A stretch of DNA of 32,000 bases from Cupriavidus necator. GTDB lineage: Bacteria > Pseudomonadota > Gammaproteobacteria > Burkholderiales > Burkholderiaceae. A program made the translations under genes and the position numbers. Shown here one piece after another: positions 4,252 through 22,384 of the stretch. The stretch is from assembly GCF_016127575.1 (NCBI RefSeq), contig NZ_CP066019.1, positions 2,610,001-2,642,000 of the forward strand, read 5' to 3'. The notes below the pieces were generated by a model. It was not told the DNA's origin. It searched no databases and saw only the letters and a list, made by a program, of their open reading frames with translations. The number at the start of each line of letters is the position of its first letter. Within the stretch, counting starts at the first letter, position 1.

Positions 4252-5169
4252 TCAGGCGGGCAGGAACCCTTCGACGGTCAGGTAGCGCTCGCCGGTGTCG
4301 TAGTTGAAGCCCAGCACGCGCGCGTTGGCCGGCAGCCCGGGCAGCTTCTGCGCGATCGCGGCCAGCGTGGCGCCGGACGAGATGCCGACCAGGATGCCTT
4401 CCTCGCGCGCGCAGCGGCGTGCCATCTCGCGCGCGGGCTCGGCATCGACCTGGATCACGCCGTCGAGCAACGAGGTATCGAGGTTCTTCGGGATAAAGCC
4501 CGCGCCGATGCCCTGGATCGGGTGCGGCGCCGGCGCGCCGCCGGAGATCACCGGCGAGGCCACCGGCTCCACGCCAAAAACCTTGAGCTGCGGCCACTTG
4601 TCCTTGAGCACGCGGGCGCAGCCCGTCAGGTGGCCGCCGGTGCCGACGCCGGTGATCAGCACATCCAGCCCCTCGGGGAAGTCATTCAGGATTTCCTGCG
4701 CGGTGGTGCGCGCGTGCACGTCGACATTGGCGGGATTCTCGAACTGCTGCGGCATCCATGCGCCCGGCGTGGCCGCAACCAGTTCCTCGGCGCGAGCGAT
4801 CGAGCCCTTCATGCCCTTCTCGCGCGGGGTCAGGTCAAAGGTGGCGCCATAAGCCAGCATCAGGCGGCGGCGCTCCACCGACATGCTGTCCGGCATCACC
4901 AGCACCAGCTTGTAGCCCTTGACCGCGGCCACCATGGCCAGGCCGATGCCGGTATTGCCCGAGGTCGGCTCGATGATGGTGCCGCCGGGCTTGAGCACGC
5001 CACGGCGTTCGGCGTCTTCCACCATCGACAGCGCGATGCGGTCCTTGATCGAGGCGCCGGGGTTGCTACGCTCTGACTTGATCCAGACCTCGTGGCCGTT
5101 GCCGAACAGCCGGTTGATGCGGATATGCGGGGTATTGCCGATCGTCTGCAGGATGTTCTGGACCTTCAT
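4252..5169 (-). CDS. cysK: Cysteine synthase (O-acetylserine sulfhydrylase), CysK-like
   Basis: PLP-enzyme motifs [31 protein letters not shown] and [17 protein letters not shown]...QQFENPAN resembles CysK more than CysM. Confidence 0.88.
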
Positions 5170-5324
5170 CGTATTCTCCGTGGCGGGCGCGGTGTCGCAG
5201 GCTTGGAAGCCGCTGGCACCGCAGGATCGAATGACGGGATGATTTTAGAGCAAGGCGCCGCTCGGGCTGCCCGACTGCCGCCGTGATCGTGATGCTGGTG
5301 CGCGGCTGAAGCGCGCGCAACGGG

Positions 5325-5360
5325 TTACTTGCGGAACACCAGGCAGAGGGGTTCGCCATC
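5325..5360 (-). other. Possible displaced native 3' end of the DUF938 methyltransferase gene (attL-side remnant)
   Basis: The minus strand reads GAT GGC GAA CCC CTC TGC CTG GTG TTC CGC AAG TAA, which is DGEPLCLVFRK*. It aligns codon for codon with ...NNFSLTFHL... at the intact gene's 3' end (21776-21796). Both copies share GGAAC (5333-5337 and 21775-21779). Confidence 0.4.
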
Positions 5361-5403
5361 CCGGTGACAGATACGAAAACCGCTTATATATAGTGTTATT
5401 CCG

Positions 5404-5484
5404 TGTGTGTTGATGGTTTTTAGGTGCCCCAAGCCGGCGATTTGGGGCACTTCCGCCGTAGTATGGCCGTCCCAACAACACACA
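5404..5484. promoter_or_regulatory. Nested inverted repeats upstream of int (candidate att arm sites or int operator)
   Basis: The outer pair is TGTGTGTTG (5404-5412) with CAACACACA (5476-5484). The inner pair is GTGCCCCAA (5424-5432) with TTGGGGCAC (5442-5450). Confidence 0.5.
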
Positions 5485-5501
5485 TATAGGGGTGCACTAA
5501 A

Positions 5502-6542
5502 ATGGCAAACTTTGAGCACAGGGGCACCACGGTTCGTGCCCTAGTCCGCATGAAAGGCCAGCGAGTCAGCGCTACTTTCGACAATGAGAAGGCGGCGCAT
5601 GAGTGGGCGCGGAAGACTGAAAAGCGCATCAGCGAAGGCGAAACCATCCGCAAGTACGATGACACCAGCGACCCTTCCGTCGCCTATCTCCTAGAGAAGT
5701 ACGCCCGCGATGTTTCTGGTGGCAAGCGTGGGGCTAAGGTTGAGCGCTATACGCTGACAGCAATGTCCCGCGACTTTCCGGAGATATTCGGCAAACGCGT
5801 AAGTGAGTTTCGCAAGGACGATGTGGAGGCGTACATCAAGAAGCGCGGCAGCACGACAAGCAGGTTTGGCCGCAAGGTCGCACCGGGCACGATAATTCGT
5901 GAGGTGACGGTTCTGTCAGCGGTGTTTAGCTACGCCATTCGGCGCTGGGAAATGCCGTTCTTTAAGAGGGAGAACCCAGCCCAAGGCATCGACAATAGGC
6001 CAAAGTCCACAGAACACAGGAAACGGCGCGTCAGTGACGACGAGGTCAAACTCATTTGCGCACAGCTCGACTATGTAGAGGGCACTGTCCCCAAAACGAG
6101 CAAGCAATGGACTGCATGGGTCTTTCAGTTCTGCCTAGCAACAGCAATGCGTAAGGGTGAAGTGCTTGCCGCAACGTGGCAGCACGTACACACCGACGAG
6201 CTATATATCCATTTGCCGGAAACCAAGAACGGCTACGCCCGGGACGTGCCGCTAAGCCCACGCGCAATCGCACTGCTGGCAAGCCTTAAGCAAGGCAAGG
6301 GCGCTCAATTGGTCGCGCCAGTCAAATACAAGACCCTGGACAGCGCATTCTGGCGCGCCAAAACGGAGATCGGCATTCAGAACCTACACTGGCACGATAG
6401 TAGGCACGAAGCAACGACGCAGTTGGCAAAGAAGCTCACAAACACCCTTGAGCTTGCAGCCGTGACCGGGCATAGGTCGCTGGCGATGCTGCATCGCTAT
6501 TTCAACCCGACCGCGACAGAAATGGCGCGCAAGCTCGTATAG
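5502..6542 (+). CDS. int: Tyrosine site-specific integrase (phage integrase family)
   Basis: The C-terminal catalytic region contains ATAMRKGEV (Arg), HWHDSRHEA (HxxR) and GHRSLAMLHRY (His and Tyr nucleophile). An N-terminal SAM-like domain is present. Confidence 0.92.
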   Translation: MANFEHRGTTVRALVRMKGQRVSATFDNEKAAHEWARKTEKRISEGETIRKYDDTSDPSVAYLLEKYARDVSGGKRGAKVERYTLTAMSRDFPEIFGKRVSEFRKDDVEAYIKKRGSTTSRFGRKVAPGTIIREVTVLSAVFSYAIRRWEMPFFKRENPAQGIDNRPKSTEHRKRRVSDDEVKLICAQLDYVEGTVPKTSKQWTAWVFQFCLATAMRKGEVLAATWQHVHTDELYIHLPETKNGYARDVPLSPRAIALLASLKQGKGAQLVAPVKYKTLDSAFWRAKTEIGIQNLHWHDSRHEATTQLAKKLTNTLELAAVTGHRSLAMLHRYFNPTATEMARKLV

Positions 6543-6866
6543 AGGGGCGGCATCATGGAACATCATCAAGGTTTCCCCGGTCGCGAGTTGTACGAAATCC
6601 GGCGCGCTCACGCGATCCAACAGCGCATGACTGAGCCACCCGCATGAGATGACGCGGACGCGGCGACACACAACATGCTTCGGATGTGGCACGACAAGAT
6701 TGAAGCGTGGATGCTGGAACAGGCGGGCATCGACTTTACGCCCAGCGAAGTGCAAGCTGGCTTGAGTGCTGTAAAGTAGCCGAAGTCAGTTTGCCCTCCC
6801 ACGCCGATGGACGGAAAGGCCAGCCCCTATCCCGTTCCGGCGGAAACGCCCAAATAAGGGAGCCAT

Positions 6867-7601
6867 ATGACACGCGCGAACATAAAAGAGGTGTTTCACT
6901 GGATAGGCCATCGGACCGCCGAACGCCGCCAAGCGGCTGATGGTGGCTACTTGTATCGCACCCCAGAAAACCAAAGCCTCGCCATCGCCTTGGCCGTCCC
7001 GCTGTTCAGCACAGCTGATGCGACGTATAAGGGCGCCAACCTTTGGGAGATTGATGGGTTCGTCGAGACGTTGGAGTCGACGTGCGACCACGAAGCCGAG
7101 GCCTTGCGTTCACGACTAAACAGGGTGCGCGAATGCTGGGCAAATTCAGGTGACATGGAGCTCTGTCGCGCCCACATTGACGTTTTGAACGAAGCCTTGT
7201 TGCGTCGATATGAAGTAGCTCGCCTGCGTAATCTCGCCAATGCACATGAGGCACTTGCAAGGGCTGCAATACTGTCCGCCGATGCAAATACGCCGTTGCC
7301 GTTACACGCAATCTCGTTAGATGCGAAGCAACCTACGGAAATCCGCCAGCCAAATACCAGTACAGCAGCGGAGGCAAGCACCTGGCTGTCAATAGCACGG
7401 AAGATTGCGCTCGAATTTATCCAGCGCCATAGGGAGAAAGGGCTCGCTCCGGGGCTGCAGGACGTCTCCGATCACGTCGCTACCGCGCTGCGCTCAGCTG
7501 CAATTTATGGGCACCATAGGCGTCCGCTGTCTGCGGCCTACATCAAGCGCAATGCGCTCCAAGGCGAGTGGTGGAAAAAGAACAAGCCACAAAGGGACTA
7601 G
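6867..7601 (+). CDS. Hypothetical protein (island)
   Basis: 244-aa ORF with RBS AAGGGAG 6 nt upstream and a strong terminator downstream. I recognised no motif. Confidence 0.6.
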   Translation: MTRANIKEVFHWIGHRTAERRQAADGGYLYRTPENQSLAIALAVPLFSTADATYKGANLWEIDGFVETLESTCDHEAEALRSRLNRVRECWANSGDMELCRAHIDVLNEALLRRYEVARLRNLANAHEALARAAILSADANTPLPLHAISLDAKQPTEIRQPNTSTAAEASTWLSIARKIALEFIQRHREKGLAPGLQDVSDHVATALRSAAIYGHHRRPLSAAYIKRNALQGEWWKKNKPQRD

Positions 7602-8050: not shown

Positions 8051-10057
8051 ATGGAAAACGGCCATTTTGAGCAAGGCCGCGCCCGCGACGCGCTGTCTTG
8101 CCTCGACGCCGGGTGCTCACGTGGCGAATGGATTCGCTTGGGCATGGCCGCGAAGGCGGCCGGCCTTTCCTTCGAGGACTTCCATTTGTGGAGTCAGAAC
8201 GCGCCGAACTACAAAGGCGAACGCGATTGCCTGACGGCGTGGAACTCCTTTGACGATGGCCCGATTACCGAGTCAACGCTCTTTCGCGCTGCCCGTGATG
8301 CCGGCTGGCAGGGTCTCTATAAGGCGCCTCGGAATGGCGTAGGCACCATCCACGCATTGATCCAACGCCCGAAGGAACAAGCCGAACCACAGGTCGCTCC
8401 GAAGGTGCGCATCGATCCTGTATCCGCTTTTGACGCCTACCCTTCCGCTCCGGCGGAGCATCCCTATATCGTCGCCAAGCGCGGCACGGCGGACGGTTTG
8501 CGCATTGTCCCCATAGAAAATCCGCTGGCAATCCGGGGGAGGTCCGTGGCTGGTTACCTAGCCGTCCCGGTACGCTCGCTCGACGGCGAACTGCGGACGG
8601 TCCAATACATCCCGCCTCCGGGCGCGGGCGAGAAGCTGAACGCGCCAGGCGCTTCCTTCGGTAGCGGCATGTTCGTCGTCGGCGAAGTCAGCGCCGATGG
8701 TCGCATTTACATCTGTGAGGGCATCGGCCACGCATGGGCTGTGGCGCGCGCAGACTATCAAGCAGCTGCCGTCGTCACGTTTGGTGCGGGCCGGTTTCGG
8801 GTCGTCGGACAAGCTCTGCGTGAGCGCTACCCCGATGCGCGCCTTGTATTCGTGGCAGACCGTGGCAAGGAAGCCGAGGCCGAAGGCATCGCCCGCGAAC
8901 TCTGTGGCTCGTGGGTGGTCGCGATGCCCGGCGACAAGCCGCCGAATTACGACGCGAATGACTACGAACTCGAGCACGGCACCGAGGCGCTGGAGAGCTT
9001 GCTGCAAGCCGCCAAGGCACCGCCCATGCACTACCAGTTGCAATCGGGGGCCGATCTGATGGACGTGCCCATGCCGCGCTGGCTAGTGCGGGGCGTCCTG
9101 CCTGCCGATGCCCTCGCCGCCTTGTTTGGCCCCTCTGGCTCCGGCAAATCCTTCATTGCCCTGGACCTGTGTGCCGCCATCGCAGATGGGGCGCCAGAAT
9201 GGTTCGGTCGCCGCGTTACTGGCGCGCCTGTCACGTATTGCGCTTTGGAAGGTGCGCGTGGGCTGCAAAAGCGGATACATGCATGGACTATTAGGCACCA
9301 TCGTCCGTTGCCGGCTCGCCTGAGATTTATCACGCAGGGCATCGACCTGCGTAACCAGGACGACATCGCGGACCTCGCTGCCGCCGTCGTTGCTAGTAGC
9401 GCAGGTGATGGCCTGTTGGTGCTTGATACGCTGAACCGTGCCGCTCCAGGCGCCGACGAGAACTCCAGCAGGGACATGGGTGACCTCATCGAAGGCGCAA
9501 AGGAGTTGCAGCGGCGGATTGGCGGCGTCGTTTTGCTGGTTCATCACACTGGAAAGGACGGCACGAAAGGTCTGAGGGGGCATAGCAGCCTATACGCCGC
9601 GCTGGACGTCGCCATCGAAGTATCGCGCACTGACAGCCGCCGTGAGTGGTCCATCGCCAAGAGCAAAGACGACGAGGATGGTGCTCGGGCTGCCTTCGTA
9701 CTGCGGGTGGTGGAACTCGGGAGTGATCCAGACGGCGATCCGGTTACATCCTGCATCGTCGAGCCAGATGGGGCAACCGCCGCCGACACGGTGCAGCGGT
9801 TGAAGCTACCGCAAGGCTCGAACCAGAAGATTGCCTATCAGGCTATCGGGGAGTTGTTGCGCCATGCAAAGGACTTCGACAAAGGCGGCGCGCCGAACGG
9901 TCGCCCCTGCATCCAGATCGACTCCGCATTTGCAGCCGTTGCTGCGCGAATGCCATGCGCCGAGGAAAGCCGCCGGTACGTCGCGCGGCGCGCGGTAACC
10001 GCAATGGTCGGCAATGGCATTTACCAAGTCCGGGAAGGCTGGTTATGGCACGCATGA
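8051..10057 (+). CDS. Bifunctional primase / replicative helicase-like ATPase (PriCT-2 + Toprim + RepA/AAA_25-type P-loop)
   Basis: The N-terminal PriCT-2-like block is RGEWIRLGMAAKAAGLSFEDFHLWSQ...WNSF. The Toprim-like part is ICEGIGHA...VFVADRGKE. Walker A is GPSGSGKSF and Walker B is LLVLDTLNRA, followed by LLVHHTGKDG. Confidence 0.85.
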   Translation: MENGHFEQGRARDALSCLDAGCSRGEWIRLGMAAKAAGLSFEDFHLWSQNAPNYKGERDCLTAWNSFDDGPITESTLFRAARDAGWQGLYKAPRNGVGTIHALIQRPKEQAEPQVAPKVRIDPVSAFDAYPSAPAEHPYIVAKRGTADGLRIVPIENPLAIRGRSVAGYLAVPVRSLDGELRTVQYIPPPGAGEKLNAPGASFGSGMFVVGEVSADGRIYICEGIGHAWAVARADYQAAAVVTFGAGRFRVVGQALRERYPDARLVFVADRGKEAEAEGIARELCGSWVVAMPGDKPPNYDANDYELEHGTEALESLLQAAKAPPMHYQLQSGADLMDVPMPRWLVRGVLPADALAALFGPSGSGKSFIALDLCAAIADGAPEWFGRRVTGAPVTYCALEGARGLQKRIHAWTIRHHRPLPARLRFITQGIDLRNQDDIADLAAAVVASSAGDGLLVLDTLNRAAPGADENSSRDMGDLIEGAKELQRRIGGVVLLVHHTGKDGTKGLRGHSSLYAALDVAIEVSRTDSRREWSIAKSKDDEDGARAAFVLRVVELGSDPDGDPVTSCIVEPDGATAADTVQRLKLPQGSNQKIAYQAIGELLRHAKDFDKGGAPNGRPCIQIDSAFAAVAARMPCAEESRRYVARRAVTAMVGNGIYQVREGWLWHA

Positions 10058-10195: not shown

Positions 10196-10474
10196 ATGAC
10201 AACGTTAATTCAACCCCCGATCTGGAATAGCCCCACCGACGCGGTGGCCGGCCTCGCACCGTTCCTGAATAGCGAGAACGCCGTTGACCATGTTCTCGTG
10301 AAAGTCGACGACCAGAACGTCGCTCACTTCGACAACGGGCCGCTCTATAGGGAAGCCCGCTACGTCTATGGCTACACCGGCACCCATCCCGCCGGCCCCA
10401 TGGCCGCCTGCTGGTACGACTCCCGTACGGGCTTGCGGTTGCACAACGTTTCTGCGTGGACGCTTGCAGAGTAG
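10196..10474 (+). CDS. Hypothetical protein (island)
   Basis: ATG at 10196 lies 6 nt after GAGGTG. The track ORF begins at an in-frame GTG at 10187. No motif recognised. Confidence 0.5.
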   Translation: MTTLIQPPIWNSPTDAVAGLAPFLNSENAVDHVLVKVDDQNVAHFDNGPLYREARYVYGYTGTHPAGPMAACWYDSRTGLRLHNVSAWTLAE

Positions 10475-10500
10475 TAAAACGGCACCATTGGAGAACCACC

Positions 10501-11541
10501 ATGACGCTATTCAGCTTTCTCGACAGAGCCCATCTCACTAAGGGTGACGAAAAAAAACTGCGCGACATTCTGAATTCGGCTGAGGCCGAGGAAATCCTTG
10601 CTCGCGTCGAACAGACCACCATCGATATGCGCAAAGCCCTCCGTCAGCGCCTCGACAGCCTGGACGCACGGCACGACAAAGGTATCGCTACCGCCAGCGC
10701 CACCCATCTGAAAGCGATCCTTGCTCGCGAAGCCGCAGAGGTGCAGCTCGCAGCGGCGCGGGCCGAGGAAAGCCTCACCAGTGCTGCTAGCTACGCGGTT
10801 GAGGAGATTAAGGCCACAGAAGCCAAGGAACTGAGGCAAGCGCTGATCGATTCGCGCGACGACCGGCTTGACGACTACTACCGGGAGCTGGATAGCGCCT
10901 TGGGCCAGTCAAGGCATCTCACTCGCATCACCTCGTTTCGCCATGGCTCTTGGCTGGGGGACCGGATGACAAGGTACGAGTCCAACGCCGAGCAAGTGAC
11001 GATGCTCCGGAGGCTACTTATGGATGCACTAGAGGACGTGAAGAGCATGACCTTGGAACCGCTGAGCCGCAATGAGGTGTCCGAGCGGCTTACAGCGTGG
11101 AGCCACAAGCTGGAGTCGCAGCTCAATGCATTCTCGCTGGCAACACCCCGGCTCGATGAGAACGGCGCTGTGGCATCGAGCCGCGTGCCACTGAAGTTCG
11201 TCGAAGTGCTCCAGGCCAATGGCGTAGCGGAGCCGGGCGACGTCCCGCCGCAAAAGCCGCCGGCGGCGCAACCGCGCCCTACTGCCTCGTCTGTGTCCGA
11301 GTCCGCGCATGCGGCATTGCCTCAACTGGCTGGCCCGAGGCGCTCCGATTGCGCAAAGCCGAAGTGCCTCGCCGTCGCGTCGTACGTCAATCCGAAGCTT
11401 ACGGCAGCAGATCGTGCACGGGCTAGGGAGTTGGGCTGGTTGCGGGAGCGCCACAAGGCGGCTCAAGCGTCTAAATCCGAGATGGCTCAACTTGTGGATA
11501 TGAACGGCGCGCTGATTGATCACCGTATGCCGATCAAGTAG
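10501..11541 (+). CDS. Hypothetical coiled-coil protein (island)
   Basis: ATG at 10501 follows GGAGAA. The N-terminal two thirds is helical and charged, followed by a Pro/Ala-rich linker and a basic C-terminus. The track ORF start at 10456 overlaps the preceding gene. Confidence 0.6.
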   Translation: MTLFSFLDRAHLTKGDEKKLRDILNSAEAEEILARVEQTTIDMRKALRQRLDSLDARHDKGIATASATHLKAILAREAAEVQLAAARAEESLTSAASYAVEEIKATEAKELRQALIDSRDDRLDDYYRELDSALGQSRHLTRITSFRHGSWLGDRMTRYESNAEQVTMLRRLLMDALEDVKSMTLEPLSRNEVSERLTAWSHKLESQLNAFSLATPRLDENGAVASSRVPLKFVEVLQANGVAEPGDVPPQKPPAAQPRPTASSVSESAHAALPQLAGPRRSDCAKPKCLAVASYVNPKLTAADRARARELGWLRERHKAAQASKSEMAQLVDMNGALIDHRMPIK

Positions 11542-11545
11542 AGGA

Positions 11546-11583
11546 AAGGGCTGCTCCGGTTTCGGGGCAGCCCCTTGCTTGTT
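11546..11583 (+). terminator. Bulged GC-rich hairpin after the 10501-11541 gene
   Basis: AAGGGCTGC...GCAGCC(C)CTT followed by GCTTGTT. It lies between convergent genes. Confidence 0.45.
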
Positions 11584-11708
11584 ACAAACCGCACAGGTCC
11601 TCCGCTCCAGAGTACTCCTGCGGTTCACTAATCTGTTGAGCCCACGGGCGAATGTGCTCTTCTTCATCGAAGATTGGCGGTGCCTTCAATTAGAGCAAGA
11701 CTGACGGC

Positions 11709-12971
11709 CTAGTCCCAGTCTTGGTCGGCCTCCTGCCCATCAGCATTGCTTATCCATAGTTCGCCATCGTCATAGGCGCTAACACTTAGCTCGCGATGTC
11801 TATAGCGGATCGCGGTCGTCGATACCAGTCTAATGCTTCCGTCCACATACTTGAGCCGGAACGCATCTTCAGGCTTGTCGGTAAGTAGCCCCTTGTCGGC
11901 GAACAAAACGATGTTTATTCCGCCGGCTCTCTGTACCGAAGAGAAGAGGATTCCATCGAATGGCTTCTCATGGACATGGGCAAGGTATTCAGCCATCGTT
12001 TGAGTAATGAGGTAATCTGACTCCCGGCCTGGAACGATTGGCTGAGATATTAGGCTGTGGAGTCGGCGCAGGAATTCGCGACGTTCAAGCTGGTCGGTGA
12101 AATCCGTTTGAAAGTAGCTCAGTGCCTTCCCGCTGCGTGCGTCGTCCAGACGGGTGAAGTCCAGAACGCGTAGCGCATGCGTGGTCTGCATGGTAATGAT
12201 TGCGACCTCGCTTCCGAGCGCCGGCCGCATCTCCGCCAGACATGTTTCTGAATCTCTCGCCCCATATAAAACTACGACGCCCTCCGCATTCATGCGGCCA
12301 GCTCTAGCGTTCTCGGCTGGAGGCGGCCCTACATGCTTTATCGGATCGGCGTAGATTTCTTTGAGAAGCGATCGCGAGCTACACAAGCGGGCTCGAAAGA
12401 TCTTCGTCCCCTTTGGCAGGACGCGAACGACAGGGTGGAGTCGAGTGCCTTTTCTGGCGCGCAATTCATCGATTCCTTGAAACAGCTTCTCGAATAGTGC
12501 GCGCGCGGACGGGCTGAAGAACCGACGCCCATGCTTCAGTTCATTCAGTGTGTAACTCCACTCCTCAAAGTAGCGACCAGTGCGAATTCGTGTGGGCACG
12601 TAGTTACTTGTTTCATCCCAGTAGGCCTCTCCACCATCGCCCGGCCAGTAGTCATCTGCGTCGACAATTGCAGAGACAATCTCGTCTTCGAAGTCAAAGT
12701 ACTGGCCTAGCACGTCCTGGACGAAATACGAAAGTGAGTCGCCCTCTTGTTCCCACCACTCCGAATCGTTGTCCCCGAACCTCTTCACCGTTTGGCCAAG
12801 GCCGAAGTGCTCGCGCATGATCGGCTCCATGATTTGGCCAAGGCGTCGGATTGTGATTGCCTCGCGCTCCAACTCGTCGCAAACCGAGCATTCAATCTTC
12901 TCCCCCTCCGCCTTGATGATCTCGCTTAGGTGGAGATCTTTGACGCAGCCGTAGCAGACTGCTCGTTCCAT
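11709..12971 (-). CDS. RES-domain protein (NAD+-targeting toxin family) with extended N-terminal CxxC...CxxC domain
   Basis: RBS GAGGAG. The RES signature is FRAR, GRMNAEGVVVLYGARDSETCLAEMR (Arg and Glu) and DGILFSSVQ (Ser). The N-terminus carries CYGC (aa 6-9) and CSVC (aa 28-31). Confidence 0.8.
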   Translation of the reverse strand: MERAVCYGCVKDLHLSEIIKAEGEKIECSVCDELEREAITIRRLGQIMEPIMREHFGLGQTVKRFGDNDSEWWEQEGDSLSYFVQDVLGQYFDFEDEIVSAIVDADDYWPGDGGEAYWDETSNYVPTRIRTGRYFEEWSYTLNELKHGRRFFSPSARALFEKLFQGIDELRARKGTRLHPVVRVLPKGTKIFRARLCSSRSLLKEIYADPIKHVGPPPAENARAGRMNAEGVVVLYGARDSETCLAEMRPALGSEVAIITMQTTHALRVLDFTRLDDARSGKALSYFQTDFTDQLERREFLRRLHSLISQPIVPGRESDYLITQTMAEYLAHVHEKPFDGILFSSVQRAGGINIVLFADKGLLTDKPEDAFRLKYVDGSIRLVSTTAIRYRHRELSVSAYDDGELWISNADGQEADQDWD

Positions 12972-13254
12972 AAATGGCGCTCCTCACGTAGATTGCTCGA
13001 GTAATTTTACCGCTGCGGCATGTCCCTCGGTGCTTCGGCGTCTCCATCATTAAAGCGTCGCAGCTTAAATCGTCAGGTCATGGTCAGCCGGCTCGGTGTT
13101 CCATGGAGGTAAGCACGGCTCTCTTCGACTGCGAAGGGCAGCCTAGAATCGTTCGGTGTTCTGGCAGAGGTAGTGGATTAGGCCATTTGGTCGGCTTGAT
13201 GCGCAGGCGGCGCAGGCTCGATAATCCGGGAAGTCGAGATCCAGGGAGTCGATA

Positions 13255-13917
13255 ATGCGACGTCTCGTTTGGCTGTTGCTGTTCGTGATGGCTTCTGCGA
13301 TGGCCGTCGAGTCTGCGCCAGAGCTGAGGTCCGCCGTTGAACAAGGGGCGCAAGGTTCCAGGGTTGGAAAGTTCTTTTGGATACGGCCAACACGGGATGG
13401 AAAGTCAGAGGTTCCGATCTATGAAACCGTGGAAGGCAGTTATGATGCGGTTTATGTGACAAGAGTGACGCGATTCAAGGTCGTAGGGTATGACCCCGCA
13501 GGAGCTGGGTGGTACCAGCTCAAGTTCGACGACGGCAAATCGGGCATCATCCCGTGGCGGGTATTCGAGGACTTTTTTGGATACTGGGGCTACGCCCAAA
13601 TCCTCGAGGAGGATCCTGCTGCCATCCAGGCTAGAGAAGATGCTGAGAAACGGGCTGAGCAGTTGGCCACTCAACGGGCGGCGAAGCGTGAACGCGACGC
13701 CGAGCGTCGCCGTATCACGGCAGCCAAGCAGCAGGCGGCGAAACCTGGCGTCAGGATCGGGATGACGAGTCAGCAAGTGCTCGAGGACACCCATTGGGGA
13801 AAGCCGCAGTATGTCAATAAGACCCAAAACGCCTATGGAATAACTGAGCAATGGGTCTATCGGACTGGGAATTACCTCTATTTCAGAAATGGTGTATTGG
13901 AAACGATCCAGTATTGA
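13255..13917 (+). CDS. Secreted hypothetical protein with BamE/SmpA-OmlA-like C-terminal domain
   Basis: RBS GGGAG. The signal peptide is MRRLVWLLLFVMASAMA. A charged coiled segment follows. The C-terminus GMTSQQVLEDTHWGKP...EQWVYRTGNYLYFRNGVLETIQY fits the BamE/DUF2845-type pattern. Confidence 0.65.
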   Translation: MRRLVWLLLFVMASAMAVESAPELRSAVEQGAQGSRVGKFFWIRPTRDGKSEVPIYETVEGSYDAVYVTRVTRFKVVGYDPAGAGWYQLKFDDGKSGIIPWRVFEDFFGYWGYAQILEEDPAAIQAREDAEKRAEQLATQRAAKRERDAERRRITAAKQQAAKPGVRIGMTSQQVLEDTHWGKPQYVNKTQNAYGITEQWVYRTGNYLYFRNGVLETIQY

Positions 13918-15525: not shown

Positions 15526-16188
15526 CTATTCCACTGTGCCTAATCTGGAAGCCGCTGCGCAGTAAACAATTGCGGCACGCTGGCAATCCCCCAAGGCCCG
15601 GTGCATATCGGAAGTGTCCAAGTTCCCATCTTTTGCAATCTCAGCCAATCGGTAGCTTTTCCGGTCGGGCCATGCACGCCGTGACATTTTTAGTGCACAC
15701 GAAACTGGATTTGCAAATGTTATCGAACTCTTTCCGGCGGCCTTGGAAATAAAGGCCATATCAAATTCGGCATTGAACGATACGAGTCGCAAGTTGCCCG
15801 CGAATTTGGCAAAGTCTTGAACTGCAGACTCTAGGGAGACTCCCTCTGCCTCAATCATTTCAGGTGTTATACCGGTAAGTTCCGTAATTTTTTTCGGTAC
15901 TTTCCTTGATGGCTTTACCAAAACCTGAAATGTATCGTGATTGTTTGAGTTTCGATTCACTCGGATTGCACCTATTTCTAGGATTTCATGTCGCTCCGAG
16001 TCAAGTCCAGTTGTTTCAATATCGAACACAACAAATCGCTCCGGAAGGTGTGCCAGTGGATTGCTAGCTACCAGTCGAGAAGAAGTGCTGAAAGAAGTTG
16101 AAGGAACTGGATCGCTGCTGTCCTTCGTTAACTTATAAATGAGGACGGCAATTAACCCTATAAGCCCAAGGAAAATAATCAATTCCAT
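15526..16188 (-). CDS. DnaQ-like DEDDh 3'-5' exonuclease with N-terminal transmembrane anchor
   Basis: RBS AAAGGAAG. The TM helix is ELIIFLGLIGLIAVLIY (aa 2-18). ExoI is FVVFDIETTG (D56, E58), ExoII is SFNAEFD (D143) and ExoIII is HRALGD (H196, D201). Confidence 0.85.
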   Translation of the reverse strand: MELIIFLGLIGLIAVLIYKLTKDSSDPVPSTSFSTSSRLVASNPLAHLPERFVVFDIETTGLDSERHEILEIGAIRVNRNSNNHDTFQVLVKPSRKVPKKITELTGITPEMIEAEGVSLESAVQDFAKFAGNLRLVSFNAEFDMAFISKAAGKSSITFANPVSCALKMSRRAWPDRKSYRLAEIAKDGNLDTSDMHRALGDCQRAAIVYCAAASRLGTVE

Positions 16189-17228: not shown

Positions 17229-19040
17229 ATGCGACTCGAAGCCGTAGAGGTTCTTGGATTCAAACGCCTGCAGAAAATTGAGCTGCTTACACCGTCAATG
17301 ACAGTGCTCGTCGGAGGCAACAATTCAGGCAAGTCGTCGCTGCTTCAAGCCATTCATTTCGCTGTTACTGTTCTCCAGTCAGCCCGTCTCTCCGCTGATG
17401 GGGGGAAGCCAATGAACACGCTTGGTTTCGATCAGTTCATATACAAGCCAACGGGCGACCTTATTCAGCTCAATCATGGCACTCCGATTACGTCAAAAAC
17501 GGGCCCGGAGTTCACCTTCACCTATACCGATGCCGGCGCAGCGGAGCATCTGGAGTTCCAACTCAAGTTGCGTCGGGGAAAGAATGCGAACATCGCGATC
17601 ACGTTTGAAGATGAAAGCACGTTCTTTATTCGCGCAGCCAATCGGAGCCAGCCTTTTTCTGTCTTCGTGCCTGGTCTAGCAGGAGTGCCTCTTCGGGAAG
17701 AATTAAGAACACCATCGGTCGTCGCAAACGGAATCGCCCAAGGCGATTCAAATATCTATCTTCGGAATGTTCTTTACCGAATCTGCAAAGACGATGCAAA
17801 GCTGATGCGATTCCACGAAGTGATCGCCTCCGTCTTCCCAGGTCTAACCATCTCAACAGCATTCGACCCCGAAGCTCACCTGTACATTGATATCTCTGTG
17901 CATCTGGATGGGCGCACTGTGCCGCTCGAAATGGTTGGCACCGGCGCACTTCAAGCCATTCAGTTGGTGGCATATGTCACAGCCTACGATCCGGCACTCC
18001 TTTTGCTCGACGAGCCTGACGCGCATTTGCATCCGTCAAACCAAAAGCTATTGGCATTGACGTTACAGAAAATAGCCGAGGCCGGCAGCACCAAGGTAAT
18101 CTTGGCCACGCACAGTCGCCACATGTTCGACGCACTCGCACGCGACGAAGCAACCCAAATTATCTGGCTGAAGGATGGAGGAAAGCAGGAAGGAGCCGAG
18201 CGGAATAACCTTTCCGTGTTACTCGATCTCGGCGCACTGGATAGCTTCGAGTTAGTACACGCCGGCCAAAAACGAATTGTCGTCCTCACGGAAGACACAA
18301 AGGTCGCTAGGTTGGAAATCTTCCTGCGTGCGAATGGCCTGAATGATGCCGACTACTTCCTCCAACCCCTACACGGCGTTAACAATTTGGCGGCAGCGGT
18401 CCCCATCGCCGATTACTTTACGAGGCAAGGTGACAATACTCACGTCTTAGTACATCGCGACGGGGACGGCATGACAGATGCTGAGAAGACTTGGTGGCTA
18501 GAGAACGAGTCAAAGAAGCTGCCTGATCGAACAACTGCCTTCATCACGCCGTTCACTGATATTGAACATACCTTCTGCAGGCCTGCTCACATTTCGGCCG
18601 TCTACGGTATTCCTGAAGCTGACTCCGAAGCAATGATGGCAGCAATCATCGCTGCCAACCAAGCTTTGCTTGCAGCCGAGTTTGCGCAGAAGAGAGTTAG
18701 CCTCAAGGACACCACACTTAAAAGGATGAAGGACGCCTCATCCGCAACAGACATGCTGGCTGGCGGTTTGAAATTCGAACACATCAAAGGCAAGAGGCTG
18801 ATGGCGCTTGTGCAAACAGCTCTTCAACAGGCGGGGCACAACCCGATGCGGTTGACAAGCACACCATCTGCAGCGCTTGTGTATGCACCTCTGCGCGACA
18901 AAATTGCCGCCATCAAGGCAGCAGTGGCTGCTGCTGAGGCAGCTGCTCAGGCCGCTGCTCCTGAGGCTGCCGCTGGGGCAGTGGCTGAAGTGGCTGCTGC
19001 CGGCGAGGCTGCCGCTGCTGGCGAGGTTGTGCAGCAATAG
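17229..19040 (+). CDS. OLD-family / fused PARIS-like nuclease: ABC-type ATPase (AAA_15/21-like) + Toprim/DUF4435-like domain + Ala/Glu-rich tail
   Basis: Walker A is GGNNSGKSS (aa 29-37) and the signature-like block is GTGALQ. Walker B is LLLLDEPDAHLHP (aa 257-269), followed by ILATHS. The Toprim-like part has VVLTED (E355) and VHRDGDG (D411, D413), 56 aa apart. Confidence 0.8.
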   Translation: MRLEAVEVLGFKRLQKIELLTPSMTVLVGGNNSGKSSLLQAIHFAVTVLQSARLSADGGKPMNTLGFDQFIYKPTGDLIQLNHGTPITSKTGPEFTFTYTDAGAAEHLEFQLKLRRGKNANIAITFEDESTFFIRAANRSQPFSVFVPGLAGVPLREELRTPSVVANGIAQGDSNIYLRNVLYRICKDDAKLMRFHEVIASVFPGLTISTAFDPEAHLYIDISVHLDGRTVPLEMVGTGALQAIQLVAYVTAYDPALLLLDEPDAHLHPSNQKLLALTLQKIAEAGSTKVILATHSRHMFDALARDEATQIIWLKDGGKQEGAERNNLSVLLDLGALDSFELVHAGQKRIVVLTEDTKVARLEIFLRANGLNDADYFLQPLHGVNNLAAAVPIADYFTRQGDNTHVLVHRDGDGMTDAEKTWWLENESKKLPDRTTAFITPFTDIEHTFCRPAHISAVYGIPEADSEAMMAAIIAANQALLAAEFAQKRVSLKDTTLKRMKDASSATDMLAGGLKFEHIKGKRLMALVQTALQQAGHNPMRLTSTPSAALVYAPLRDKIAAIKAAVAAAEAAAQAAAPEAAAGAVAEVAAAGEAAAAGEVVQQ

Positions 19041-19176: not shown

Positions 19177-19950
19177 ATGGTGGCATTTCAAATAAAACGT
19201 ATTGTCGTGCCCTATGAATCGCTCAAGGAAATGGGCGCCGAGAACCAATATGCGCTATATCTGCTTGGGCACATTTACAACGAGATAATGTGCCTAAACA
19301 GGTGGTCGGTCCTGGCGAGGCGAGATGTTTCTGGCGGTGTCGACGCAGAGCAGGCCGGCGCGGTCTTTAATATCATGTTCGTGACGCGGATTCTGGCTGG
19401 AAAACTATACGAGGCAAAGTTAATAATTAGCCAGAAAATTGTTAAGCAGTTCCTAGAAGGATATTGCTACCCACATATGCCAGAATCAGACATCGCCGGA
19501 TTGAAGGCTCTCAACAGGGCTATGTCACAATGTAAGTGGATTAATCCCGCAAGGAATGGGCATGCGATGCATTACCCGGAGTTTGAGAACTGCAAAGAAG
19601 CTATAAATGCATTGAATTTTGGGAAGCAAGGTTTTGAGATTTTTGCTGGCGGCAGCTTCGGTGCGACGATGTATCGCACCTCCGACGTCATGGCAGGAGC
19701 CGCCTTTATTTTCGAGGCCAATAGAGATTGGGGCGTCGGCTTAAACACAATTGTCGAAGACGTGCTGAGCTTAAGTCATCAGGTCACTGAGTTCACCAAC
19801 TCTGCAATCGGCGCTTTTGTCAATAGCATAAAGTCTGGCTCTCGGTCATATAGCGAAAGAGTCAAGATTAAGGATGTTCCGAAATTTCCCATTCCTGATA
19901 TGACGGACTTCGTCTTGCCATACTTCATGGTGGTAAGGGACAAGGACTAA
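19177..19950 (+). CDS. Hypothetical protein with Rx5H HEPN-like motif (possible partner or effector of the OLD-like gene)
   Basis: 257-aa AT-rich ORF with GGAG 4 nt before the ATG. It looks predominantly helical. ARNGHAMHY (R126...H132) fits the Rx4-6H pattern with a polar residue after the Arg. Confidence 0.6.
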   Translation: MVAFQIKRIVVPYESLKEMGAENQYALYLLGHIYNEIMCLNRWSVLARRDVSGGVDAEQAGAVFNIMFVTRILAGKLYEAKLIISQKIVKQFLEGYCYPHMPESDIAGLKALNRAMSQCKWINPARNGHAMHYPEFENCKEAINALNFGKQGFEIFAGGSFGATMYRTSDVMAGAAFIFEANRDWGVGLNTIVEDVLSLSHQVTEFTNSAIGAFVNSIKSGSRSYSERVKIKDVPKFPIPDMTDFVLPYFMVVRDKD

Positions 19951-20469
19951 CGTCGGAATCTCTTGAACGGTACTGCCCCCGGCCGCTTAATTTTCATCCA
20001 GTCGGGCGAGCGCTCGCCATCCCGATACAGCGACCCGGCGCGCTTCCCGACTACTCCCTCTAGGCCGAGCGTGAGAACGTGGCCGTACAGCCATGCGCCA
20101 TCCTCTATGCTGTCCACGTACAGGATTCCCGCCGGCGAATCGGCCAACAATCGGCGGAGTGCCGACTTGCGACGCTCTATAGGCTGCCCGCACAAGTCTT
20201 CCCCCTTCCCTACTAGCAGGTCAAATACGCAGTGGGCGACCAGGTCCGCGCGCTTGTACCAACCCTTGCGCCGGGCCCGCGCCCGCAACCGCTCGAAGTC
20301 GCTCCGGCCCGATGTCGTCTAGCTCGCCGACTATGAACTGGAACGGGTAGACTACTTCCTGGCACAAACGGTCGAGCGCTGGGGAGCGCAAGGCCAAGGC
20401 CCGCCGCCGGTCAGTAGTCAAACGGCGATGGATGAGAAGTCGGGCGTTGCTGGAAAGAGCAGCCTTCAC
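19947..20469 (-). pseudogene. ATP-dependent DNA ligase (LigD ligase-domain-like) remnant, frameshifted and truncated at both ends
   Basis: Two adjacent minus-strand frames carry ligase blocks. FIVGELDD is motif III-like, VFDLLV..GEDL is IIIa-like, LEGVVGKR is IV-like and SPDWMKIK is V-like. There is no KxDG motif I and no OB domain. Confidence 0.65.
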
Positions 20470-20508
20470 AGGTGGAGGCCAAAAACGGCAGTCTGGGGAG
20501 AAATAACA

Positions 20509-21051
20509 GTGAAACTCCGATTTAAATCCCTACTCGCATTATCAATAGCATCAATGGGAACAGCGAATGCGGCCCCGTTCGGAGACTGGGCTACGGGAAC
20601 GACCACCGATGGGAATCTCTACGCTGCCGTTGTAAATGAGAGCCAGAGCGTGTTAATGAAGGTTTGCGTTTCGGGAGATAGCACTTGTATTTGGTACCTC
20701 GGCACGCAAACCAGATGCGAATCTGGAGGAAAATCCCCTGCCCTCATAAATTCATCACTTGGTGCGACGACTGTGGAATTGGTCTGCGACAGACAAATTC
20801 AACTGCGCAATACAACAGGCCTGCATTATCGCTATGCCATCCTCAACTATGACCTTATGGACAAAATTGCTGCGTCCGCAACTGGCGCCTTTGGCATTGC
20901 CGTGGCTCTGGAAAGCGGTCGATTTGCAGTCTATAGGTTCTCGAGCAGCGGTGGAAAGCAAGCTGTCTCGACGCTAGAAGAAGCCGCACTGAGACTATAC
21001 AGAAAAAACAATTCTCCGGCGCCAGCGGCAAATAGAGACTCATTGCTATAG
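20509..21051 (+). CDS. Secreted hypothetical protein
   Basis: GTG at 20509 lies 8 nt after GGGGAG. The signal peptide is KLRFKSLLALSIASMGTANA. The upstream part of the track ORF overlaps the ligase remnant. Confidence 0.55.
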   Translation: MKLRFKSLLALSIASMGTANAAPFGDWATGTTTDGNLYAAVVNESQSVLMKVCVSGDSTCIWYLGTQTRCESGGKSPALINSSLGATTVELVCDRQIQLRNTTGLHYRYAILNYDLMDKIAASATGAFGIAVALESGRFAVYRFSSSGGKQAVSTLEEAALRLYRKNNSPAPAANRDSLL

Positions 21052-21754: not shown

Positions 21755-22384
21755 CTATTTGATTTTATTGAGATGGAACGTTAGGCTGAAGTTGTTGGCC
21801 GGCATCGGCACCGGCTCGTCGCAGCGCATGCCCTGCGCCTCGCCCAACGCGATCACGGCTTCCATGTCGCGCACGCCCCAGTCGGCATCGGTGGCGCGCA
21901 GCTGCGCGTCGAAGGCGGCGTTGCTGGGCGCCGTATGCGCGCCGCCGCGGCGATAGGGGCCGTACAGGAACAGCACGCCGCCCGGGCCCAGCAGCTTGCC
22001 GGCGCCTGCGAAGAGCGCCTCGGCCGCAGCCCACGGGGCGATATGGATCATGTTGATGCAGACCACCGCATCCGCGGCGTCGATGCCCCACGGCTGGCGG
22101 CAGACATCCAGCGCCAGCGGCGCGCGCACATTGGCCAGGCCCGCATGCGCGGTCCACGCGGCGATCGACGCGCGCGCGGCGGCTTCCGCATCGCTTGGCT
22201 GCCAGGTCAGTCCCGGCAACGCTGCCGCGAAGTGCACGGCATGCTGGCCGGTGCCGCTGGCAATTTCCAGTACCGTGCCGCTGGCGGGCAGCACTTTGCG
22301 CAATACCGCAAGGATCGGCTCGCGGTTGCGCTCGGTGGCGGGCGCCATGCGGCGTGCATCGGGGTCTTGGGTGGAGCCGGTCAT
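21755..22384 (-). CDS. DUF938-family class I SAM-dependent methyltransferase (3' tail apparently island-derived)
   Basis: ERNREPILAVLRKVLP, LEIASGTGQH, NMIHIAPW, LYGPY and MPANN are DUF938 blocks. The last ~6-12 codons (those encoding HLNKIK*, and possibly FSLTF as well) lie in AT-rich island sequence; the exact crossover is unresolved. Confidence 0.85.
   Translation of the reverse strand: MTGSTQDPDARRMAPATERNREPILAVLRKVLPASGTVLEIASGTGQHAVHFAAALPGLTWQPSDAEAAARASIAAWTAHAGLANVRAPLALDVCRQPWGIDAADAVVCINMIHIAPWAAAEALFAGAGKLLGPGGVLFLYGPYRRGGAHTAPSNAAFDAQLRATDADWGVRDMEAVIALGEAQGMRCDEPVPMPANNFSLTFHLNKIK

Follow-up and report, generated by a model that had tools for sequence, protein, structure and literature searches.

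A probable divergent member of the aRES family of stand-alone NAD+ phosphorylases on a mobile island of Cupriavidus necator

The window analyzed here, a stretch of 32,000 nucleotides (nt) from Cupriavidus necator (contig NZ_CP066019.1, positions 2,610,001 to 2,642,000), carries on its minus strand a gene (11709-12971) for a 420-amino-acid (aa) protein that very probably belongs to the aRES family, as a divergent member not catalogued before, and is predicted to act as an infection-activated, stand-alone NAD+ phosphorylase that aborts infection. The protein combines a four-cysteine module and a helical N-terminal domain with a C-terminal domain that has the RES fold and conserves its catalytic residues, and the gene lies on a mobile island without a partner gene.

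Both this architecture and its function have already been described, and the window protein is one more member. The combination of a zinc ribbon, HEPN/RES-NTD1 and RES was described computationally in 2013 by Anantharaman et al. (PMC3710099). They introduced the name HEPN/RES-NTD1, recorded the fusion of this domain to RES, and predicted an abortive infection (Abi)-like role for such N-terminal domains, with RES regarded as an RNase. The name aRES was given to the family in January 2026 in a preprint by Osterman et al. (bioRxiv 10.64898/2026.01.28.702374), which describes aRES proteins as stand-alone RES proteins in defense islands, carried by ~4% of genomes. Three enterobacterial members, cloned alone, protect Escherichia coli from diverse phages while growth arrests, and this defense is abolished by active-site point mutations. 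The enzyme converts NAD+ to nicotinamide and ADP-ribose-1''-phosphate (ADPR-1''-P), and upon infection NAD+ goes down and ADPR-1''-P goes up; the same work cites reports of NAD+ phosphorylase chemistry in RES toxins. Phage countermeasures against aRES are aRad1 inhibitors and a NARP1 pathway extended by a Macro-domain phosphatase (bioRxiv 10.64898/2026.01.28.702374).

Membership of the window protein in the aRES family

Using BLASTP, residues 2-357 of the window protein align with residues 4-353 of E. coli UC5 aRES at 28% identity (E = 2e-42), spanning the cysteine module, the N-terminal domain, and the RES domain. In a joint alignment of the window protein with three validated aRES proteins, two plasmid homologs, and two close relatives, C6, C9, C28, C31, R193, R195, R226, Y236, E247, and S345 are among the invariant positions. 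The last six of these residues correspond to UC5 R182, R184, R215, Y225, E236, and S334, respectively, all of which were replaced by alanine in the mutants built for UC5 aRES (Table S4, bioRxiv 10.64898/2026.01.28.702374). The R226A and E247A mutants that an earlier reading of the DNA letters (the first-pass annotation) had proposed are equivalent to the published R215A and E236A.

Operationally, the preprint defines an aRES protein as one of 300-600 aa that contains RES and PF18870 by HHsearch (probability >80%) and is encoded by a stand-alone gene; its methods give the Pfam identifier of RES as PF00808, where PF08808 is RES (bioRxiv 10.64898/2026.01.28.702374). At 420 aa the window protein lies within this length range, and its gene stands alone, the RES gene being the only gene common to the window and the related loci (see below). 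Homologs on Klebsiella and Polaromonas plasmids pass the PF18870 cut-off and align with the window protein across this region, at E = 5e-47 and 7e-61, respectively. We also found relatives in Methylotenera sp. N17 (59% identity), Haliea salexigens DSM 19537 (39%), and Rugamonas rubra ATCC 43154 (42%), three genomes that appear in Table S2 of the preprint (bioRxiv 10.64898/2026.01.28.702374). The window protein falls into a subfamily of ~420-aa proteins with members in beta- and gammaproteobacteria and in Acidobacteriota.

Several observations weigh against this assignment. The window protein is just 28-33% identical to validated or plasmid-borne members (28-29% to the validated ones), its last 60 residues have no alignable counterpart in the enterobacterial proteins, and its PF18870 score of 18.8 bits is under the gathering cut-off of 27.4. 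No complete known defense system was recognized beside the gene in the window, and the protein has no match among the models of PADLOC v2.0.0 (2023) and NCBIfam. The aRES work is, moreover, a preprint (bioRxiv 10.64898/2026.01.28.702374). Because PADLOC-DB predates that preprint, its blank result says nothing against aRES membership. A comparison with PHROGs likewise gave no match to the window protein. On balance we infer that the function of the homologs carries over to the window protein at 28-30% identity. The first-pass annotation had proposed a self-regulated, single-gene RES NADase acting in abortive infection, and this proposal is now supported by the homology to validated UC5 aRES and the retention of its active-site residues; the novelty that it implied did not hold, since the architecture, including the zinc ribbon, was listed in 2013 (PMC3710099) and the function is given in bioRxiv 10.64898/2026.01.28.702374.

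The gene and its domain architecture

The gene is a complete coding sequence of 420 codons on the minus strand, opening with ATG and ending in a stop codon at 11709-11711, and its extent agrees with the list of open reading frames (ORFs), with the length of its homologs, and with the UC5 alignment. A ribosome-binding site, GAGGAG (12980-12985, minus strand), is read from the sequence 8 nt 5' of the ATG. The gene is convergent with a 361-aa ORF (10456-11541, plus strand) and divergent from a 220-aa ORF (13255-13917, plus strand). We found at least 403 homologs at E <= 1e-5, the closest of which among the matches listed is 77% identical to the window protein; because these homologs are mostly full length (405-425 aa), the gene is real, far beyond chance. 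The reading frame, its own ribosome-binding site, the convergent neighbor, the CYGC-x18-CSVC, GRMN, E247, and S345 motifs, and a RES core in the C-terminal half had all been read correctly in the first-pass annotation, to which the minus strand and a same-strand ORF downstream (see below) are added here.

The 167-nt gap between the two convergent genes contains a G+C-rich hairpin (11548-11573, plus strand), recognized in a consensus scan as terminator-like for the gene on the plus strand, and this hairpin may also end the aRES transcript. Promoter and terminator counts in the flanks of the aRES gene were, by the same kind of scan, no higher than in shuffled sequence. A 369-aa database form of the protein (P0001), starting at M52, was considered as an alternative start and rejected as an artefact: the ~4.2-kb contigs behind it stop 51 nt upstream of M52. 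The exact gene is present in twelve independent assemblies, and all four of the contigs inspected (L055-L058, from Logan, ~4.2 kb) break ~51 nt upstream of codon 52. Close to this break point, a 12-nt sequence (TTTGGCCAAGGC) is exactly repeated in direct orientation, at 12791 and 12833.

Starting from the N terminus, the protein opens with a zinc-ribbon-like module (aa 1-35; 12867-12971, minus strand) defined by four cysteines in the arrangement C6-Y-G-C9, x18, C28-S-V-C31, which is predicted by AlphaFold2 (AF2) with a predicted local distance difference test score (pLDDT) of 90-94. The four cysteines are invariant or at least 90% conserved in family alignments, and the motif is shared by all three validated aRES proteins and by 87 of 98 diverse full-length relatives. 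This module presumably binds metal. It is followed by a HEPN/RES-NTD1-type helical domain, whose Pfam envelope covers aa 22-154 (12510-12908, minus strand) and which is supported by a model of the N-terminal part alone and by the sub-cut-off match to HEPN_RES_NTD1 (PF18870) in a Pfam hmmscan (E = 0.0021, profile positions 2-126 of 131). The same profile is matched at E < 0.01 by 67 of the 96 members of the window-protein family. As a whole, the N-terminal module extends to approximately aa 185 (12417-12971).

The RES catalytic domain occupies aa 186-368 (11868-12416, minus strand), with PF08808 matched at aa 208-368 (E = 2.5e-18, 67 bits against a cut-off of 23.2). It carries R193, R195, R226 (within the GRMN motif, residues 225-228), Y236, E247, and S345. 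Across family alignments of 27 and 96 sequences, R193/R195, R226, E247, and S345 are, like the four cysteines, invariant or nearly so. The remainder of the protein forms a beta-rich C-terminal extension (aa 369-420; 11712-11867, minus strand), with AF2 strands between residues 373 and 408 and two residues, Y390 and H392, that are conserved in family alignments.

Like the aRES proteins of Osterman et al., the window protein is encoded by a stand-alone gene, has the same order of four-cysteine module, HEPN/RES-NTD1-type domain, and RES, ends in acidic and aromatic residues, and lies on an island of mobile and perhaps defense type. The two differ in the C-terminal region, which is shorter in the window subfamily and not alignable, with a tail of DDDW[DE] in place of the enterobacterial ...DF. 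When the N-terminal 185 residues were searched against 1.84 billion representatives, 489 proteins were matched at E <= 0.001, and among the top 150 of these all 98 full-length proteins carry RES; the HEPN-fused versions listed among HEPN/RES-NTD1 proteins (PMC3710099) were not reached from the window sequence.

Predicted structure and chemistry of the RES domain

An AF2 model of the full window protein, built on 96 sequences, has a pLDDT of 86.5 and a predicted template modeling (pTM) score of 0.77, with residues 410-420 as its sole disordered part (pLDDT < 50). Using Foldseek, the confident matches of this model in the PDB are RES toxins only: VPA0770 (8gug), the Pseudomonas putida RES protein (9r35/6gw6), and ParT (6d0i), with probabilities of 0.9-1.0 and a template modeling (TM) score of ~0.5 on the target. 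These toxins were recovered by structure comparison alone, as the family alignment, used as a sequence profile against the PDB, gave no match at E <= 1. Comparison with viral models returned uncharacterized RES/ART-like proteins only and was uninformative.

For the N-terminal module, the first-pass annotation had suggested a domain search and a structure prediction. The search yielded the weak PF18870 match described above, and the 185 residues modeled alone reached a pLDDT of 88; no credible fold match for this module was found in the PDB by Foldseek (best E = 0.2).

The presence of ParT (6d0i/6d0h) among the confident structural matches raises an alternative, in which the RES domain would be a ParT-like mono-ADP-ribosyltransferase acting on a protein target such as Prs and not an NAD+ phosphorylase; sequence alone cannot tell the two chemistries apart. 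However, NAD+-degrading RES toxins outrank ParT in the structure comparison, and aRES homologs with the same active-site residues accumulate ADPR-1''-P and lose NAD+. We therefore regard a ParT-like activity as very improbable.

In catalytic fold and in its R/E/S active site, the window protein agrees with the toxins of the Xre-RES, ParS-ParT, MbcA-MbcT, and NatR-NatT systems. Unlike these toxins, which are ~145-160 aa long (144-160 aa in solved RES toxins) and are neutralized by an adjacent Xre/DUF2384 antitoxin, it has ~185 extra N-terminal and ~50 extra C-terminal residues and is encoded without an antitoxin gene.

Carriage on mobile elements

The aRES gene lies in a stretch of low G+C content, from ~5.2 to 21.7 kb of the window (51-63% versus ~70% in the flanks), together with a tyrosine integrase gene (5502-6542) and a gene for a PriCT_2/Toprim/AAA_25 primase-helicase (8051-10057). 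Relatives are also common on plasmids, where we counted 761 records, 251 of them conjugative and 462 from Klebsiella. Some homologs adjoin Lamassu, PDC-S06, or MAD3-like genes.

This integrase/primase setting and the many plasmid-borne relatives would also suit a gene that mainly serves the mobile element itself, through island maintenance or addiction or through competition between elements, with host immunity secondary. A related possibility is that the gene is an inactive relic, and in three relatives (L026, L033, and L035) the gene is indeed split by frameshifts. In the window, however, the ORF is intact and all catalytic and cysteine residues are kept, and homologs defend against phages. 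Because carriage of defense genes on mobile elements is the norm, the location does not contradict a defense role, and we consider service to the element or a relic very improbable.

Search for a partner gene

To delimit the conserved neighborhood, 51 genomic and 3 plasmid loci were collected, less one locus without a callable RES ORF, giving 53 related loci plus the window; ORFs of at least 45 aa were called in all of them and compared all-against-all. The RES gene, together with antisense shadow ORFs inside it, is the sole widely common cluster. Families of flanking ORFs are limited to at most five loci each, where they differ in distance and orientation. The nearest neighbors of the RES gene vary in strand, spacing, and size (60 to >1000 aa), and a relaxed comparison of these neighbors revealed links only between closely related genomes. 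Outside the RES gene, the ORFs of the window have no counterpart in the 53 related loci, with the exception of the integrase.

No ORF for an Xre/DUF2384 (ParS-type) antitoxin was found in the window or in the related loci. A search of the flanks with Rfam at E <= 1 gave one match, at chance level and inside a neighboring gene, and the flanks contain no inverted repeats or repeat array, with direct repeats of chance size only. As the flank, Rfam, repeat, and promoter/terminator scans gave nothing conserved or above chance, the lack of an antitoxin holds for the whole family. The first-pass annotation had claimed that no antitoxin accompanies the gene, and had proposed a survey of homolog neighborhoods as a check; the absence of a conserved neighbor in the 53 loci and of Rfam or repeat signals in the flanks sustains that claim, and no antitoxin gene is consistently adjacent to the homologs in these loci.

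Two candidate partners were evaluated and rejected. The first is a same-strand, arginine-rich 212-aa ORF (11029-11667, minus strand) located 41 nt downstream of the aRES gene and antisense to the 361-aa gene. G+C content by codon position gave no decision between these two overlapping frames, and the 212-aa ORF was dismissed on its composition and its lack of a counterpart in any related locus. The second is the convergent 361-aa gene, considered because on Klebsiella and Citrobacter plasmids, too, the RES gene faces a convergent gene, of ~280-340 aa. The plasmid genes are not similar to the 361-aa gene, and their mutual similarity is marginal at most (E = 0.003 over 56 aa).

A further alternative is that the protein belongs to a toxin-antitoxin pair, as its toxin, and that the antitoxin (the 212-aa ORF, an RNA, or a small and fast-evolving protein) was overlooked. 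This would accord with the type II toxin role of canonical RES proteins, with the structural matches 8gug, 6gw6, and 6d0i, all of them toxin-antitoxin complexes, and with the position of the 212-aa ORF, which codon-position G+C content cannot separate from the 361-aa gene. However, the lack of a shared ORF other than an integrase, the variable strand, size, and gap of the flanking ORFs, the absence of Rfam matches and repeat arrays, and the phage protection given by homologs cloned singly and expressed in E. coli leave this the least probable of the alternatives.

Proposed mechanism and regulation

In the proposed mechanism, the window protein would be made constitutively and kept inactive until a cue during phage infection turns on its C-terminal RES domain. 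Acting as an NAD+ phosphorylase, this domain would use inorganic phosphate to attack the nicotinamide-ribose bond, releasing nicotinamide and ADP-ribose-1''-phosphate. The resulting collapse of NAD+ would stop growth of the infected cell, such that phage spread fails, as expected of abortive infection. The zinc-ribbon/NTD1 module, and perhaps also the acidic C-terminal tail, may carry out sensing or autoinhibition, a role that the first-pass annotation had suggested for the N-terminal domain. The words "sensor", "trigger", "C-terminal", and "tail" are absent from the main text of the aRES preprint (bioRxiv 10.64898/2026.01.28.702374).

A comparable logic is found in the SIR2 proteins DSR1 and DSR2, in which one polypeptide likewise joins a sensing region to an NAD+-destroying effector and infection is aborted. 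They differ in the fold of the effector (SIR2 or TIR versus RES) and in the product, which is ADP-ribose (ADPR) and not ADPR-1''-P. The trigger of DSR2 is the phage tail tube protein.

The disordered end of the protein is acidic and aromatic in composition (...EADQDWD, approximately aa 409-420; 11712-11747, minus strand; AF2 pLDDT < 50). In 117 close homologs the last 12 residues contain on average 5.2 D/E and 0.28 K/R, and a combined acidic/aromatic tail criterion picks out 72% of these homologs and none of 146 background ORFs from the neighborhoods. The tails end in DDDW[DE] in the window subfamily, in DDFPF, DWDF, or LTDF in plasmid homologs, and in DDLMDF in the reconstructed UC5 aRES; phenylalanine is the last residue in 31 of 98 diverse relatives. 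This acidic/aromatic tail resembles the C-terminal tip of SSB.

With low confidence, we suggest that the zinc-ribbon/NTD1 module and the acidic tail may be parts of the aRES activation switch. In the resting protein, the arginine-rich NAD+ pocket could be blocked by the tail, by analogy with the phage inhibitor aRad1, which employs a loop and a tryptophan. Alternatively, the tail could serve as a docking motif like that of the SSB tip, coupling activation to a DNA-replication protein of the phage or the host.

Depletion of NAD+ by aRES via ADPR-1''-P is not reversible by NARP1, a common phage pathway for rebuilding NAD+. With this locus, one more divergent aRES gene is placed on a mobile island, and reasoning from sequence only had reached a mechanism that was already published. 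The ~420-aa subfamily could serve a comparative study of aRES sensing, as it combines an invariant four-cysteine module with an N-terminal fold that no solved structure matches and with a conserved acidic/aromatic tail.

Neighboring genes and related loci

The low-G+C island is bordered by a PALP-family gene (4252-5169) and a DUF938 methyltransferase gene (21755-22384), with flagellar genes further out. No att-type direct repeat of at least 16 nt bounds the island, and the window contains no tRNA gene.

Among the related loci, L011 (Tunturiibacter gelidiferens) has a 302-aa RES paralog (4937-5845) directly upstream of, and on the same strand as, the full-length gene (5935-7215), which may indicate tandem duplication of the RES gene in some genomes. 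Truncation, or division of the gene between two ORFs, is seen in L026, L033, L035, L042/L044, L045, and L046 and may reflect pseudogenes or assembly errors in metagenome-assembled genomes.

Within the island, the 220-aa product of the divergent ORF (13255-13917, plus strand) has a hydrophobic N terminus that, by eye, is signal-peptide-like, and its C-terminal 60 residues match phrog_11546, a family of unknown function (E = 5.7e-15). A second 220-aa protein, encoded at 15526-16188 on the minus strand, is a DEDDh (RNase_T/DnaQ-like) exonuclease with PADLOC matches to a CRISPR-associated DEDDh protein and the candidate system PDC-S48; its first ~20 residues also appear strongly hydrophobic by eye. 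Further along, a 603-aa AAA_15/AAA_21 ABC-type ATPase (17229-19040, plus strand) has PADLOC matches to AriA, NsnB, MAD3, Old, and GajA, and is followed on its 3' side by genes for 257-aa and 207-aa proteins without a family match (19177-19950 and 20428-21051, both plus strand). The ATPase gene and these two genes may together form an unclassified ATPase-based defense module. The ATPase gene contains a 27-nt periodic repeat at 18917-19012 that encodes an alanine-rich segment.

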